Under the pieces are notes generated by a model that saw nothing but the letters and a program-made list of their open reading frames with translations, was not told where the DNA came from and did no database searches. The position numbers were made by a program, and so were the translations under genes. From the NCBI GenBank assembly GCA_048941015.1, contig JBHLNZ010000056.1:1-19380 (forward strand): a DNA stretch of 19,380 nucleotides. The letters are read 5' to 3'. Shown here one piece after another: positions 6,871 to 19,380 of the stretch. Within the stretch, counting starts at the first letter, position 1. Each line of letters starts with the position of its first letter. Source of the stretch: Promethearchaeota archaeon (GTDB lineage: Archaea > Asgardarchaeota > Lokiarchaeia > Sigyniarchaeales > SOKP01).

Positions 6871-8220
6871 GTGAACCAAAATTTAAACCCTGAAATAATT
6901 CGAGAATATTATGCCAATGGTAAATTGGATAAAAATTCCGCTTTTAAATTGTTAATTTCAATAATAGAAAAAAGTAATGATGATACTAACAGGATAAAAG
7001 CTATTGAATTAATGGGAGAAATTGAATTTTCCAATTCAAAAGAATACGAAATTTTAGAAGAATTAATGGTTTCGGATTCAAATAAGTATGTTAGAGGTAC
7101 AGCAGGGAAAATTATTATCCATAATTTCATAGAAAAAGGAATAAAGCCAATAAAATGGGCAATAAGAAATGACCCTTCACTGGATTTTTTATTTATAATT
7201 ATGGAAGATTTAAAAGTAATTGATGAAAATGTTCTCCATTTAATTTTAATCAATAAATTTAAGGAGATAATTAGTAATAAGATAAACAATGCAAATAATA
7301 GATTTATTAAATATTACATTGAAGAATTTAAACGATTATTTAAGAAAAAGTCAATTTCAAAGTTTACATGTCAAAAACTTTGTGATATGTTCCTTAATTT
7401 TAAAGTAATTTCGCAATTAATACAAAAATATGCTATTAGTGATACTCATTTCAAGTATTATTTAAAAGATGGGCTTGTTGTTAGGTTAATGATAAATGGA
7501 CAAAACATCAGAAGAATAAAAGAGATCAATGGACTTGAAAAACTAATTAATTTGGAAATTTTGGATATTTCAATGAATCAAATTATCGAAATAAACGGCA
7601 TTGAAAGTTTAATCAACCTAAAAACATTATTATTAGGAAATTTTACTCACAACGACGGGAATGAAATAACTGAGATTAAAGGACTTGAATCCCTCACACA
7701 TTTAGAATATTTAGATCTATCTTTCAACCGTATTACCAAAATCAAAAACCTTGACAATCTTACTAGCTTAAAATTTCTAAGTTTAAGAAAAAATAATATT
7801 ATTGAAATAACGGGACTCAAAAAGCTTAGAAATCTTGAACGACTGAATCTTGGAGGAAATCAAATAAAAGAAATAAAAGGGCTTGAAAGACTTACTAATT
7901 TAAAACAATTATACCTTGAAGGAAATCAAATTACCGAAATAAAAGGACTCGAAACTCTAACAAATCTAGAATGGTTAGATCTTAGTTTTAATAGGATAAA
8001 AGAAATAGAAGGACTTGAAAACCTCCTTAAATTATCTGTTTTGAATCTTAATCATAATCAAATTACAGAAGTAAACAAATTGGAAAATCTAATCAATTTA
8101 CGTTTACTTCATCTTGATAAAAATCGAATAGTTAAAATATATAACCTTGAAAATCTCAAAAAACTTGATCATTTAAGTCTTGCATTTAATCCCATTACAG
8201 AAATTAAGGATTTAAATTAG
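6871..8220 (+). CDS. HEAT-like repeat plus SDS22-type leucine-rich repeat protein
   Basis: N-terminal helical repeats (RIKAIELMG, LMVSDSNKYVRGTAG) followed by about ten 22-aa LRRs of consensus LxxLxLxxNxIxEIxGLExLxN. Confidence 0.9.
   Translation: MNQNLNPEIIREYYANGKLDKNSAFKLLISIIEKSNDDTNRIKAIELMGEIEFSNSKEYEILEELMVSDSNKYVRGTAGKIIIHNFIEKGIKPIKWAIRNDPSLDFLFIIMEDLKVIDENVLHLILINKFKEIISNKINNANNRFIKYYIEEFKRLFKKKSISKFTCQKLCDMFLNFKVISQLIQKYAISDTHFKYYLKDGLVVRLMINGQNIRRIKEINGLEKLINLEILDISMNQIIEINGIESLINLKTLLLGNFTHNDGNEITEIKGLESLTHLEYLDLSFNRITKIKNLDNLTSLKFLSLRKNNIIEITGLKKLRNLERLNLGGNQIKEIKGLERLTNLKQLYLEGNQITEIKGLETLTNLEWLDLSFNRIKEIEGLENLLKLSVLNLNHNQITEVNKLENLINLRLLHLDKNRIVKIYNLENLKKLDHLSLAFNPITEIKDLN
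7552..8217 (+). repeat. 66-bp coding repeats underlying the LRR array
   Basis: Adjacent units are visibly similar at DNA level, e.g. cttggaggaaatcaaataaaagaaataaaagggcttgaa (7849) and cttgaaggaaatcaaattaccgaaataaaaggactcgaa (7915), 66 nt apart. Confidence 0.75.
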
Positions 8221-13961: not shown

Positions 13962-15167
13962 ATGTGGTTTTTTTATTGCCCAAATATTATTTATGGTGAT
14001 GACGCTGTAAATTATTTGGAGCAAATTGCGGGAGATAGAAATTTTATTGTCACTAATAAAAATCTTGAAAAAGTTGGTTTCCTAAAAATATTAACTGATA
14101 AATTTGATGGATGGGGTAAACATTACGAAATTTTTAATGAAATTAGTTCAGATAAGGAATGCAATGAAGATGACATTTTAAAAGGTAAAACGCCATGTAT
14201 ATCATATGAACCCGATACCATAATCGCTTTAGGTGGTGGATCTGTTATTGATGCTGCCAAAACAATTTGGGGTTTTTATGAATTTCCAGAATTCAGTATA
14301 GACGATTTTAATCCATTTAGAGAGGAATTAAAAGATCTTGGCAAAAAGGCAACATTCATTGCGATTCCAACAACGTCAGGAACTGGTTCAGAAACAACAT
14401 GGGCAATGGTTATATCACGAATTCTCGATGGTATCGAAACGAAATGTGGAACAGCTCATAGGGGATTTATCCCCCATTATGCTGTACTTGATCCCATTTT
14501 TCCTGCGGAAATGCCTCCAAAACTAACTGCCGGTACTGCGTTTGATGCACTAGCGCATTCATTTGAAGGATTGGCATCTTCTTATAGAAACGAGTTTAGT
14601 AATGCAATGGGCTTAAAAGCTATTGAACTTGTTTTTAAATATTTGCCAATTGCTTACAAGGACCCTAAGAACTTGGAAGTGAGAGATTACCTTCATCAAG
14701 CAGCGACTATGGCAGGTTTATGCTTTGGTAATGGCCAAGCTCATTTAGGACATTCATTTGGTCATCCTTTAGGGGCCGCTTTCCATATTCCTCACGGGTA
14801 TGCTGTTGGCCTTATGCTTCCTTATATTTCACAGTATTGTTTACTCAATCCTGATGAGGCTGATGTATCGGCTGGAATATATGCAAAAATTGCGAAACAG
14901 TTGAACTGGGCAAAATGGGAGGATGATGATAAAAAAGCAGCTAATAATGTCGTCAATAAAATTAAGGAACTAATGAAAGAAATTAATTTCCCACTTTCTC
15001 TTAAAGAATACGGAATTCAGAGAGAGCTCTTTGATAAAAAATTAGAATCGTTAGTTACTCAAGTTATCCAAGATCCATGTACATCAATGAGTCCTAGAAA
15101 TCCTAGTCTTGCAGAATTAGAAAAGATCTTAAAATATGCTTATGAGGGGAAAAATATAGATTTTTAA
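13962..15167 (+). CDS. Iron-containing (group III) alcohol dehydrogenase, paralog 1
   Basis: ALGGGSVIDAAK, IPTTSGTGSE, FDALAHSFE, AHLGHSFGH, HIPHG. SD GGGGTGA at 13946-13952. Confidence 0.93.
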   Translation: MWFFYCPNIIYGDDAVNYLEQIAGDRNFIVTNKNLEKVGFLKILTDKFDGWGKHYEIFNEISSDKECNEDDILKGKTPCISYEPDTIIALGGGSVIDAAKTIWGFYEFPEFSIDDFNPFREELKDLGKKATFIAIPTTSGTGSETTWAMVISRILDGIETKCGTAHRGFIPHYAVLDPIFPAEMPPKLTAGTAFDALAHSFEGLASSYRNEFSNAMGLKAIELVFKYLPIAYKDPKNLEVRDYLHQAATMAGLCFGNGQAHLGHSFGHPLGAAFHIPHGYAVGLMLPYISQYCLLNPDEADVSAGIYAKIAKQLNWAKWEDDDKKAANNVVNKIKELMKEINFPLSLKEYGIQRELFDKKLESLVTQVIQDPCTSMSPRNPSLAELEKILKYAYEGKNIDF

Positions 15168-15534: not shown

Positions 15535-16734
15535 ATGTGGTTCTTTTTTGGTCCTAATATTATTTATGGAGAAGATGCTTTAGATTTCTTCGAGAATATT
15601 TCTGGAGAGAAGTGTTTTATATGTACGGATAAAGTTTTAGAAGATCTAGGCTATTTAAAAATATTAACCGATAGACTAGATAAATATGGAAAAAAATATA
15701 CTGTTTTTAATGATATTCTCCCTGATCCAAGAGAAGAAGGAGTATTAAAAGCACTAGAACTTTGTAAGCAATATGAACCGGAATTAATTATTGCATTAGG
15801 TGGAGGATCTGTAATGGATACTGCTAAAACTATATGGTGTTTGTATGAATTTCCAGAACTAACTCTGGATGATATACATGCATTCAGAACAGATTTATAT
15901 GATATGGGTAAAAAAGCTAAAATGATTGCGATTCCTACTACCTCCGGGACAGGTGCAGAAACAACCTATGTAACTGTTATTTCAAGATACGAAGATGAAA
16001 TCTGGAAGAAATTTTTATATCTTCATAGAGGGTTAATTCCTACTTATGCTATCGTGGATCCAATTTTTCCAGCAGGAATGCCTCCAAGATTAACTGCTGA
16101 TACTGCATTCGATGCGTTATCTCACTCAGTTGAAGCGATTGGAACTATTTGGAGAAATGATATTAGCAGCGCTTTAGCAACAAAAGCAATAGAACTTATC
16201 TTTCAGTATCTCCCTATTGCTTATAAAGATGGAAGTAATAAAGAAGCAAGAGATAAACTTCATCTAGCTGCAACTGTCGCAGGATTAGCTTTTGGAAACG
16301 CAAACGTGCATATTGGTCACACTTTAGGTCATTCTTTTGGAAGCATGTATCACGTTCCCCATGGAAGGTCAGTTGGAATAGTTTTAAAATATGTAACACA
16401 GTTTATTATGAATAATCATCAAGACCGTGAAGAAGTTTTAGCACAATACTCAAAGTTATCTAAACAATTAGGTTGGGTTAATTGGGACGAAGATGAAGAA
16501 AAAGCTGCTTACGTAGTAATAGAAAAAATTGAAAATCTACAAAAAGTAGTTGAATTTCCGACTAGTCTTAAAGAAACTGGGGTTTCAAAAGAAGATTTTG
16601 AAAATAATTTAGAAGAATTAGTCAATTTATGTTATCAAGACGCCAGTTCGGTCTTAGCACCAAGATCACCAAGTTCAGAGGAATTTAAAAAGATATACAG
16701 ATATTGTTTTGAAGGAAAAGATATCGATTTTTAA
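15535..16734 (+). CDS. Iron-containing (group III) alcohol dehydrogenase, paralog 2
   Basis: ALGGGSVMDTAK, IPTTSGTGAE, FDALSHSVE, VHIGHTLGH, HVPHG. SD GGGTGA at 15519-15524. Colinear with paralog 1 from MWFF to EGK.IDF. Confidence 0.93.
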   Translation: MWFFFGPNIIYGEDALDFFENISGEKCFICTDKVLEDLGYLKILTDRLDKYGKKYTVFNDILPDPREEGVLKALELCKQYEPELIIALGGGSVMDTAKTIWCLYEFPELTLDDIHAFRTDLYDMGKKAKMIAIPTTSGTGAETTYVTVISRYEDEIWKKFLYLHRGLIPTYAIVDPIFPAGMPPRLTADTAFDALSHSVEAIGTIWRNDISSALATKAIELIFQYLPIAYKDGSNKEARDKLHLAATVAGLAFGNANVHIGHTLGHSFGSMYHVPHGRSVGIVLKYVTQFIMNNHQDREEVLAQYSKLSKQLGWVNWDEDEEKAAYVVIEKIENLQKVVEFPTSLKETGVSKEDFENNLEELVNLCYQDASSVLAPRSPSSEEFKKIYRYCFEGKDIDF

Positions 16735-16809
16735 ATTTTTATTTCTTAATTTATAGCTTTTTTTTTTATATTCAAAATTTTCCTAAACTGTTAAACATGA
16801 GCTTGTAGA

Positions 16810-16950
16810 ATAAGGCATAATAATTTATTATCTCCCTTTATTCACTCACTACGAGTCCACCATCTCCTATTATTTCCAATGATGGGGCTGTATTTCGTAG
16901 CAAATCCAACCTCTTGAGGAAGGATTCCTCTGCCATCGAGGGTTGTTGTG
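16810..16950 (-). ncRNA. Candidate TnpB omega-RNA (reRNA) scaffold overlapping the 3' end of tnpB
   Basis: Locally GC-richer nested stems: CTACGA(16849-54)/TCGTAG(16895-900), CCATC(16860-64)/GATGG(16881-85), CAACCTC(16907-13)/GAGGGTTG(16938-45), GAGGAA(16916-21)/TTCCTC(16925-30). TnpB guide RNAs are known to arise from this position. Confidence 0.6.
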
Positions 16951-18154
16951 ATAGGAAATCAAATTGGTGCTTCTGTTTTAAAAATCGCTCCAAAATATTT
17001 ACGGCTGAATTTAAATCCCTATCCATATGATTTCCACAATCACACTTGATAACACGCTCTGAAAGAGCTCTTTTTGTCCGCTTCCCGCATATGCAACATT
17101 GTTGGGAAGTATACGATTCATCAATTCTTATTACTCTCTTACCTATTTTTTTTGCTTTATAGGTTAAGAATTGAGAAAATCGTCCTAAACTACCGGTGTT
17201 CTGAATAGAATGATTTAAAGTTTTTCGAGCTTTATTATTTTGTCTGTTTCCTATTTCATTTTGTTTTTTTACCATCTTTTTTACATCTAAGTCTCCAATA
17301 ATGATGGTATTTGCCCGAGTATTCTTAATGATTTTATTTGAAATTTTATGTTGATAGTCTTGCATTTGGTTTTTACATTTTTTTTTAATCTTAAGGAGTT
17401 TCCTATTATAAAATATCCAGCGATGACTGCCTCTTTTACAATGATCCCGCTTAGATTGGATTTCCTTCATTATATTATTCCAATATAAATCCGATCTACT
17501 ATTCTTTACTTGAATAAACTTAAAACTTAAATTTACAGCTGAAACAAGATTAATAACTCCTAAATCGATAGCTTGATATAAACCATTATCTTTATAGGTT
17601 GGTGCTTCTAATTCAAATACGATACAAATAAACCATTTATTATCTTTCTCCTGCTTGATTTCTACTTGCTTAATTTTATCAAATCCTTCATAAAAACTTG
17701 GTATTATGAAATTTAAGTTTATATTAGATGGATGTTTATGAGAAAAGTATAGAACTCGCTTGTCAATTTTAAAGCCACTCTGATTGTAACAAAGAGTAAA
17801 AAAATATTTTTTCCCTTTGAAACGGGGAGGGTGAGCATTTTTTTCTCCTTTTTCAATTTGAATAAAAAATGATTTAAAGTTCTCATCTAATTTTTTTAAT
17901 ACTTGTTGGAGTACTTTGGAATAAACCCATCGATATTCGGGATATTTCTGTTTAATAATAGGAAGAATTTTACTTTGTTGTTGATATGTCAGATAATGTC
18001 TTTCTTTTCTTTCTAAATTTTTTTTAGCTATCCAATCTTGTTTACGCTCTTGGAGGGCAAAATTGTATAAGAGTCGACATTTTTCTGAAAGATCCCATAA
18101 AACTTGTTCCTGCTCTAAGGAAGGCCAAATTCGGATTTTTTGAGTTAATAACAT
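16838..18154 (-). CDS. tnpB: RNA-guided endonuclease TnpB (IS200/IS605 OrfB family)
   Basis: N-terminal KIRIWPS.EQ...CRLLYNFAL helix, PPRFK, RuvC-I AIDLG (D197), IIIGDL, IDESYTSQ, Zn finger CCICG...CDCG, and RuvC-III DRDLNSAVNI (D380). Confidence 0.93.
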   Translation of the reverse strand: MLLTQKIRIWPSLEQEQVLWDLSEKCRLLYNFALQERKQDWIAKKNLERKERHYLTYQQQSKILPIIKQKYPEYRWVYSKVLQQVLKKLDENFKSFFIQIEKGEKNAHPPRFKGKKYFFTLCYNQSGFKIDKRVLYFSHKHPSNINLNFIIPSFYEGFDKIKQVEIKQEKDNKWFICIVFELEAPTYKDNGLYQAIDLGVINLVSAVNLSFKFIQVKNSRSDLYWNNIMKEIQSKRDHCKRGSHRWIFYNRKLLKIKKKCKNQMQDYQHKISNKIIKNTRANTIIIGDLDVKKMVKKQNEIGNRQNNKARKTLNHSIQNTGSLGRFSQFLTYKAKKIGKRVIRIDESYTSQQCCICGKRTKRALSERVIKCDCGNHMDRDLNSAVNILERFLKQKHQFDFLSQQPSMAEESFLKRLDLLRNTAPSLEIIGDGGLVVSE

Positions 18155-18352
18155 AGATTGGTAATCAAATTAATACAACTTATTAGTATTAAAATTAAGA
18201 GAAATTTAATTATTAAAATGAAGAGAGGGTCCTAATTTTATAAGAATTATTAGTTTTTTTTTGCTCAAACATAAATATGACTTTTTTGATTATTTTTGTA
18301 CAAGGAAACTATTAATTTTCAATCGATAATTTTAGGTAGAAGTAATATTTAA

Positions 18353-19380
18353 ATGAGTATCTCAGAAGAAGAACAAAATTATCTTAATACTTTAGAGAAA
18401 TTAATCGGACACCCTATCCCCCAAGTTTTAGATCTCCAAAGTCACACTTATGGATACACTATAGCAGAAGGTCATGTTGAAGGTTTAGGTCTTTTTTCCT
18501 GTAAATTGACTTATTTTCCAGAAAAAATCAATAATTTGTCAAATTTAAAATATTTAATGGTTAGAGGTAACAGATTAAAAGTCATACCTGAAGAATTAAG
18601 TTTTATTTCATCATTAAAAGTATTAGATTTAAGTGAAAATAAATTAATTAAATTACCAAAAGCAGTTTATTCCCTTAAATCAATAAAGGAACTTCATTTA
18701 GAGTCAAATAGATTGACAATACTTTCAGATTCGATTGAATCTTTAAATTCTCTTAACTTATTGGATTTAAGTGAAAATAACTTAAAATCAATTCCTGATG
18801 CAATTGGAGCTCTAAAAAACCTAAAAACTCTTGATTTAAGTGGAAATGAACTTAGTGATCTTCCAGATTCAATAAAAAATCTCTCATCAGTAGAATTATT
18901 ATATTTAGGTAATAATAAATTAACAAGATTACCTGCTTCGATAGGAACCTTAAAAAATTTAAAAAGACTTAATATTAGAAATAACTATTTAAAGACATTA
19001 CCAGAAACCATAGGTGAATTATCTTCGTTATCTTCTCTTTTCTTAAGTCACAATAAATTAACTTTTCTTCCTGATTCAATTGGAAATTTGAAATCATTGA
19101 AATATTTAGGATTAACTGAGAATGAACTTTCCAGTTTACCTGAAGCAATCGGAGCACTGGAAATGCTCGAAAATCTAAGTTTATCTTCAAATAAATTAAC
19201 CAATCTTCCTTCTAGCATTGGTTCTTTGAATTATTTAATAAGGTTAGAATTATCTAATAATCAATTGAAAAACTTTCCTGAAGTTGAGAACTTAACATGT
19301 TTAAAAATTCTTAGATTGGATCGAAATAAATTAAATAAACTTCCAGTTTCAATTTCTAATATGAAATCACTTGAGAGCTT
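18353..19380 (+). CDS. Leucine-rich repeat protein (23-aa typical/bacterial LRRs), 3'-truncated by the window edge; absent from the ORF track
   Basis: Translated by hand from ATG 18353: MSISEEEQNYLNTLEKLIGHPIPQV...GHVEGLGLFSCKLTYFPEKINNLSNLKYLMVRGNRLKVIPEEL...LKTLDLSGNELSDLPDSIKNL...LPDSIGNLKSLKYLGL. No stop before 19380. Confidence 0.92.
   Translation, partial: MSISEEEQNYLNTLEKLIGHPIPQVLDLQSHTYGYTIAEGHVEGLGLFSCKLTYFPEKINNLSNLKYLMVRGNRLKVIPEELSFISSLKVLDLSENKLIKLPKAVYSLKSIKELHLESNRLTILSDSIESLNSLNLLDLSENNLKSIPDAIGALKNLKTLDLSGNELSDLPDSIKNLSSVELLYLGNNKLTRLPASIGTLKNLKRLNIRNNYLKTLPETIGELSSLSSLFLSHNKLTFLPDSIGNLKSLKYLGLTENELSSLPEAIGALEMLENLSLSSNKLTNLPSSIGSLNYLIRLELSNNQLKNFPEVENLTCLKILRLDRNKLNKLPVSISNMKSLES

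Follow-up and report, generated by a model that had tools for sequence, protein, structure and literature searches.

Positions 16797–18270 of the window (the 19 380-nucleotide stretch of contig JBHLNZ010000056.1 that was analysed here) very probably represent an intact non-autonomous IS200/IS605 insertion in the genome of a member of the Promethearchaeota (Loki-type Asgard archaea), carrying a TnpB with a relocated RuvC-II glutamate together with a guide-RNA scaffold. The whole element lies on the minus strand, is 1474 bp in length and consists of a left end, the tnpB gene, the scaffold and a right end, without tnpA. The TnpB is of the published class whose RuvC-II glutamate has moved from the end of strand β4 (now Gly287) to a position after strand β5 (Glu346), and the last ∼160 nt of the element encode the guide-RNA scaffold, overlapping the C-terminal codons of the protein. 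In the mechanism that we propose, read-through of transcription beyond the right end would append the flanking sequence GTTTAACAGTTTAGG... as a guide, and the resulting ribonucleoprotein would cut a TTTAT-flanked copy of the guide sequence, namely the empty donor site or a homologous site. Cutting of the empty site may promote retention of the element by homing, as in other TnpBs. Homing-type retention has been demonstrated for other TnpBs, and a homing role for the window TnpB is proposed here by analogy. The locus is a clean and complete example of an Ealt-type TnpB element, comprising the protein, the scaffold, a predicted target-adjacent motif (TAM) and guide and, in sister species, the site in its unoccupied form.

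The element, its insertion site and its family

The tnpB open reading frame (16838–18154, minus strand) is uninterrupted over 438 amino acids, as established from its translation, domain matches and an AF2 model. Subterminal hairpins are present at both ends of the element. The left-end hairpin (18214–18240, minus strand) is an imperfect inverted repeat with a position-equivalent hairpin in the copies from two other genomes (G207 and G219). The right-end hairpin (16808–16843, minus strand) is an AT-rich inverted repeat that matches the covarying helix 4 and forms the last stem of the RNA scaffold.

We searched 40 other genomes of the same genus at the DNA level. The two flanks of the element, an Fe-alcohol-dehydrogenase (ADH) gene and a leucine-rich-repeat (LRR) gene, abut in contig C28 of G065 and contig C191 of G141, where query positions 1264 and 2733 are joined; the uninterrupted site is seen in these two species of the genus. 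A virtual empty site, obtained by joining the two flanks of the window, differs from the G065 sequence by 12 substitutions in 55 nt, with no insertion or deletion at the junction, and reads ...ATATTTAT|GTTTAACAGTTTAGG... in the orientation of tnpB. The match of this junction to the intact G065 site therefore delimits the insertion as 16797–18270 (1474 bp), placed 3′ of TTTAT without a target-site duplication. Insertion 3′ of a short motif without duplication is the pattern of IS200/IS605 elements; the window element displays it together with subterminal hairpins at both ends.

A 6-nt sequence (ATGTTT) is common to both junctions, so that the cut points can be placed only to within a few bases. 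The right end was fixed by family conservation: in some 40-odd related loci the similarity ends abruptly after ...GTAGTTCAC, with unrelated sequence beyond, and the corresponding end of the window copy reads ...AAGCTCAT. Its terminus is GCTCAT, compared with GTTCAC in most relatives, and recognition of this right end by TnpA might be impaired. Two further descriptions of the boundaries were considered and discarded. The ATGTTT at both junctions is not taken as a target-site duplication, and GAGC/GCTC is not taken as a short terminal inverted repeat: the right end is set by family conservation at ...TCA[C/T], and relatives lack a duplication.

The surroundings of the element contain tandem ADH paralogues (13962–15167 and 15535–16734) with 68% DNA identity over 800 nt. 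Two LRR proteins are encoded in the window (6871–8220 and 18353–19378), and for the gene starting at 18353 just 82 bp of the original upstream region is left after the insertion.

Neither a Y1 TnpA nor an IS607 TnpA was found in the genome of the window, which is 95% complete. The window copy is therefore non-autonomous, and the mobility of the element has probably been lost at present. Relatives retain a transposase: a 142-residue Y1 TnpA immediately precedes family members in G041 and G058, overlapping the start of tnpB in G041, and the TnpBs beside it have the same AIDLG/IIVGDL/FDERNTS layout. The family therefore belongs to the IS200/IS605 type, as does the active TvTnpB. In G058, truncated Y1 TnpA remnants (C20:20611–20799 and C80:3492–3584; loci L070 and L072) adjoin full-length family tnpB genes and look like autonomous elements in the course of decaying into tnpB-only elements such as that in the window.

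Copies within each of G207, G219 and G041 have ∼1460 bp in common, with 73–96% identity and sharp ends. Matches to the family occur in 68 of the 301 genomes sampled across the phylum, where multiple copies and in-frame stop codons are frequent, making a relocated glutamate common in Asgard genomes; matches were found in just two of 27 other genomes of the genus of the window (E ≤ 1e-20). Such a multicopy, pseudogenized and patchily distributed family shows the behavior of a transposon. The hosts of the named homologues are Lokiarchaeota, Promethearchaeota, Odinarchaeota and Hodarchaeota metagenome-assembled genomes (MAGs), and the first-pass annotation was correct in its assignment of the DNA to a probable Asgard archaeon. 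A 49%-identical family member is also present in a Methanolobus sp. MAG of the Methanosarcinales (JAVEPM010000001.1:73160–77296; locus L006). The family is mostly but not strictly confined to Asgard archaea, and the Methanolobus copy suggests transfer between archaeal phyla.

The TnpB protein and its relocated glutamate

The 438-residue product is a full-length TnpB. It matches the Pfam families HTH_OrfB_IS605 (PF12323), OrfB_IS605 (PF01385) and Cas12f1-like_TNB (PF07282), all above their gathering scores, and its match to the NCBIfam model guided_TnpB (NF040570) scores 225.4 bits (cut-off, 100) and spans positions 2–389 of the 389-position profile. The AF2 model, for which 146 homologues were used, has a mean pLDDT of 94.3, and its top Foldseek matches are Cas12f, ISDra2 TnpB, ISFba1 TnpB and the mimivirus Fanzor2. 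The C-terminal tail (codons 396–438; 16838–16970) contains two confidently predicted helices, with a pLDDT of ∼95 up to residue 428, and is specified by the same DNA that encodes the RNA scaffold.

The RuvC-I aspartate, Asp197 (17564–17566, minus strand), is located in a D-L-G motif (AIDLGV), aligns with D191 of ISDra2 TnpB and is Asp in 217 of 218 homologues. The RuvC-III aspartate, Asp380 (DRDLN; 17015–17017, minus strand), aligns with Asp501 of ApmFanzor2 and is Asp in 214 of the 218. The canonical RuvC-II glutamate position is occupied by Gly287 (IIIGDL; 17294–17296, minus strand), which the alignment and the model place at the end of strand β4 (residues 283–288) and which aligns with the glycine of ICIGKL in Fanzor2. 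The alternative glutamate, Glu346 (IDESYTS; 17117–17119, minus strand), directly follows strand β5 (residues 340–345) and is invariant in all 149 homologues with Gly287. The codons of these four residues in the minus-strand reading frame are exactly where they had been assigned in the first-pass annotation. A zinc finger, C353-x2-C356 ... C371-x-C373 (17036–17098, minus strand), is recognizable from the sequence and the alignment. Its second cysteine pair (17036–17044) has the spacing C-x-C (CDCG) where C-x-x-C is usual, and this shorter spacing is kept in ∼118 of 119 close homologues.

The initial proposal that the canonical glutamate is replaced by glycine, with a compensating glutamate before the zinc finger, is borne out by a MAFFT alignment of 218 full-length homologues, comprising 119 close sequences (47–71% identity) and 99 representatives (∼28–53%). 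At column 287, 149 sequences have Gly and 68 have Glu; at column 346, exactly the same 149 have Glu, and those with Glu287 have Pro, Ala or Ser. The lone exception, with Ser at both positions, also lacks the RuvC-I aspartate. This pairing is far beyond chance. In a FastTree phylogeny of 130 of the 218 sequences, in which the two trait columns were kept (two of 432 columns), the canonical-Glu (Ecan) and alternative-Glu (Ealt) layouts are split by one branch with a support of 99, and the window TnpB is on the Ealt side.

Ealt has been defined as the pattern E-x6-CxxC (PMC10711439), and in the window TnpB six residues separate Glu346 from C353-x-x-C356. A phmmer comparison of residues 240–395 with PDB chains placed Gly287 on the glycine of ICIGKL, Glu346 on Glu467 and Asp380 on Asp501 of the mimivirus Fanzor2 (PDB entry 9B0L). 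The cryo-EM triad of this Fanzor2 consists of Asp324, Glu467 and Asp501 (PMC11832414), and the E467A substitution abolishes cleavage (PMC10530073). The move of the glutamate from β4 to β5 was described by Altae-Tran et al. (2023; PMC10691335); in the secondary structure of the AF2 model Gly287 closes β4 and Glu346 follows β5, as in the published relocation. As one part of the overall explanation, in which as a whole we have high confidence, the catalytic triad of the window TnpB is predicted from the alignments and the model to be Asp197, Glu346 and Asp380. The protein has the sequence characteristics of the rearranged RuvC-II class (TnpB2/Ealt/RIIr). Collateral cleavage of ssDNA is absent from the Ealt enzymes published so far. 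A pairwise HMMER alignment to ISDra2 TnpB placed L289 under E278, which corresponds to a two-residue shift of RuvC-II; it was discarded because the multiple alignment and the alignments with an AI-designed nuclease and with Fanzor2 all put Gly287 in the Glu/Gly column.

A second, unrelated TnpB of 402 amino acids is encoded in the same genome (G000 contig C118:43715–44794; L003:1465–2673, plus strand). It has Gly at the canonical glutamate position (IVIGYNFGWKQN) and Glu in IEESYTSK, lacks the zinc-finger cysteines and resembles the large zinc-finger-less rearranged group. It was matched by the family profile only and not by the window TnpB (P0001) as a query.

Guide RNA and the predicted guide and TAM

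The analysed part of the guide-RNA (ωRNA/reRNA) scaffold (16797–16958, minus strand) overlaps the last ∼40 codons of tnpB and extends to the right end of the element; a structured guide RNA at the 3′ end that terminates at the transposon right end is characteristic of TnpB. Nucleotide conservation in the last ∼160 nt of the element is far above that in the rest. RNAalifold analysis of 39 loci gave 24 base pairs in four helices, of which 20 show double compensatory substitutions, as in CUACGA/UCGUAG, CAUCGA/UCGAUG and CUGCGA/UCGCAG. In the scaffold alignment 92.6% of the cells are paired, compared with 35–44% when the partners are slid by 1–3 columns, and the covariation score is 0.55, compared with ∼0.1 when slid; the observed values were reached by none of 500 shuffles. 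The RNA of the window copy itself keeps all of the helices, and its single-sequence fold is not better than that of shuffles (z = −1.2), such that the evidence for the RNA is entirely comparative. A scan of 16400–18500 against Rfam at E ≤ 1 gave no family match.

The overlap with the scaffold is also reflected in the codons. Comparisons of the window gene with three relatives gave dS values of 2.2–3.0 for codons 1–395 and 0.15–0.6 for codons 396 to the end, and synonymous divergence in codons 396–438 is 5–15 times below that in the rest of the gene. The dN/dS ratio of the TnpB body in the same comparisons is 0.09–0.12. Taken with the low dS of the tail, this indicates that the protein is under purifying selection and that the RNA places a second constraint on the tail.

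The predicted guide corresponds to the first 20 nt past the right end (GTTTAACAGTTTAGGAAAAT; 16777–16796, minus strand). Family conservation stops just before it, and in the intact G065 site it follows TTTAT. The guide has no other match in the genome of the window at up to three mismatches. The predicted TAM, TTTAT (18271–18275, minus strand), is located in host DNA on the left-end flank and is suggested by the junction with the intact site and by the left-end flanks of independent insertions in the family, among which TTTAT, TTTTT, TTAAT and TTTAA are found. The exact TAM and the length of the guide are predictions at this stage. In two species (L048, contig C25 of G207; L054, contig C75 of G219) a family copy has the same flanking DNA on both sides and, owing to these shared flanks, does not count as an independent insertion for the TAM. 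The shared insertion was either vertically inherited or the two MAGs are close.

Alternative interpretations and comparison with known systems

The presence of Gly in place of the canonical RuvC-II glutamate could indicate a TnpB relic that is decaying or has lost catalytic activity, or alternatively a repressor of the TldR type, and the copy is single in its genome and without a transposase. We nevertheless regard this as unlikely, because Gly287 never occurs without Glu346 among the 149 homologues, the equivalent glutamate is catalytic in Fanzor2, the full-length reading frame has a dN/dS of ∼0.1, and the zinc finger, RuvC-I, RuvC-III and the RNA scaffold are all intact. Published TldRs have lost RuvC residues and the C-terminus. 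A check of the window locus for these losses and for fixed host-gene synteny found none of the three: the catalytic positions and the C-terminus are present, and the locus is not syntenic in the sister species, where the site is empty, which argues against a conserved host gene. The preference in the first-pass annotation for a rearranged TnpB over a dead TnpB or TldR holds in view of the retained catalytic positions, the alignment with the Fanzor2 triad, the selection on the gene and the intact scaffold and ends. The rearranged archaeal TvTnpB cleaves DNA (PMC10530073), and we infer, with good support from this analogy and from the sequence, that the window TnpB is likely to be an active nuclease. 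Domestication, in which the host would use the protein and its RNA for a function unrelated to transposition such as RNA-guided regulation or defence, would fit a single copy in which the gene and RNA are intact in a genome where TnpA was not found, but appears very unlikely. The locus is filled in this genome only, the ADH and LRR genes being adjacent in the other genomes of the genus among the matches listed; the spread of the family is patchy, reaching two of 27 genomes of the genus at the threshold given above; the guide is simply the insertion flank and matches nowhere else in the genome; and no conserved partner gene accompanies tnpB.

The remaining alternative concerns Fanzors, to the origins of which the first-pass annotation considered the locus relevant; this part of the annotation is not borne out. 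The window TnpB could be a pro-Fanzor, either a member of the lineage from which the eukaryotic Fanzors arose or the nearest archaeal relative of that lineage, since it has the Ealt arrangement in common with Fanzors and an Asgard host, its RuvC-II/III half scores higher against Fanzor2 (54.6 bits) than against ISDra2 TnpB (36.9 bits), and a few near relatives have D-P-G in RuvC-I. The published fingerprint of Fanzors and pro-Fanzors is D-P-G in RuvC-I combined with Ealt; the prokaryotic pro-Fanzors are cyanobacterial and are paired with IS607 TnpA, whereas the other Ealt clade has D-hydrophobic-G (PMC10711439). The window TnpB instead has D197-L198-G199, with Leu in 115 of 119 close homologues, and the association of its family is with Y1 TnpA, located directly upstream, rather than with IS607 or eukaryotic transposons. 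Full-length bit scores to Fanzor2 (9B0L) are 51.4 for the window TnpB and 50.8 for the canonical-Glu TnpB P0166, compared with 72.3 for P0154, an Ealt TnpB outside the Asgard clade, and 45.5 for the D-P-G relative P0151; the D-P-G protein P0209 gave no match to 9B0L. By these pairwise bit scores the window TnpB is no nearer to Fanzors than are other prokaryotic TnpBs. The combination of D-P-G, Gly and Ealt is found in eight near relatives (P0209, P0151, P0152, P0164, P0197, P0128, P0134 and P0252; loci L075 and L077), and one of them, P0209, is annotated as being from a Lokiarchaeia MAG. The D-P-G sequences are dispersed over the tree and represent three or more origins, and the two D-P-G relatives whose contigs were read (P0151 and P0197) adjoin Y1 TnpA. 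From these Asgard and Y1 settings it follows that D-P-G with Ealt is not restricted to cyanobacterial IS607 elements. The D-P-G relatives were rejected as pro-Fanzor-like because P0151 and P0209 are no closer to Fanzor2 and because of the Y1 TnpA beside P0151 and P0197. Placement of the window TnpB in or next to the Fanzor lineage is, on balance, extremely improbable. The occurrence of D-P-G with Ealt among the nearest relatives, one of them from a Lokiarchaeia MAG, is the basis for a related reading in which the Fanzor lineage had an Asgard-associated archaeal source with the window clade as its sister, to which we give equally little credence. On this evidence, the Asgard clade appears to have no special tie to Fanzors. 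A relocated glutamate alone is no evidence of Fanzor kinship, and the defining features, D-P-G and an IS607 partner, are absent here.

The preferred reading of the locus, as an IS200/IS605 insertion with a relocated-glutamate TnpB, places the protein in a published and widespread class (TnpB2, Ealt/D-φ-G, RIIr) of which one archaeal member, TvTnpB, has been proven to be active. What is new is the complete anatomy of one intact copy, covering its ends, its RNA scaffold, the predicted TAM and guide, and the site as it stands without an insertion in sister species. The locus has little importance beyond annotation, except as a possible addition to the pool of compact editing candidates. The description of the 438-residue protein as an editing candidate stands in this sense, although it is an ordinary and not a special one because its arrangement is that of a large published class.

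The closest known systems are the TnpB2 proteins of Jiang et al. (2023; PMC10530073), such as Thermoplasma volcanium TvTnpB with its IS605 TnpA, which have the same Gly at the canonical glutamate position. The Ealt D-φ-G clade (PMC10711439) and the RIIr branches of Altae-Tran et al. (2023; PMC10691335) represent the same rearranged class. In common with the window TnpB, members of this class have the alternative glutamate six residues before CxxC, D-hydrophobic-G in RuvC-I, a length of ∼400–440 amino acids, Y1 TnpA in the family, a guide RNA overlapping the 3′ end and an archaeal host. Unlike the published rearranged TnpBs, the window TnpB belongs to a different subclade that is largely confined to Asgard genomes and has CxC as its second zinc-finger pair. 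Its predicted TAM is TTTAT, in contrast to NTGAC for TvTnpB, and the window copy lacks tnpA, whereas TvTnpB is accompanied by IS605 TnpA. The Acanthamoeba polyphaga mimivirus Fanzor2 (PDB entry 9B0L) has the same relocated glutamate, with Glu346, Gly287 and Asp380 corresponding to Glu467, the glycine of ICIGKL and Asp501, respectively. Fanzors differ from the window TnpB in having D-P-G, an N-terminal extension with an NLS and IS607 or eukaryotic transposon partners, and their hosts are eukaryotes or giant viruses rather than an Asgard archaeon; the overall similarity of Fanzor2 to the window TnpB is no higher than that to a canonical TnpB. ISDra2 TnpB (PDB entries 8EXA and 8H1J) has the same domain order and fold as the window TnpB (Foldseek E = 1e-17), and the two agree in their RuvC-I and RuvC-III aspartates and their zinc finger. 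In both elements the reRNA is encoded at the right end, the TAM (here predicted) lies beside the left end and no target duplication accompanies insertion. The two proteins differ in that ISDra2 TnpB has the canonical glutamate on β4 (Glu278), whereas the window TnpB has glycine at this position and a glutamate after β5.
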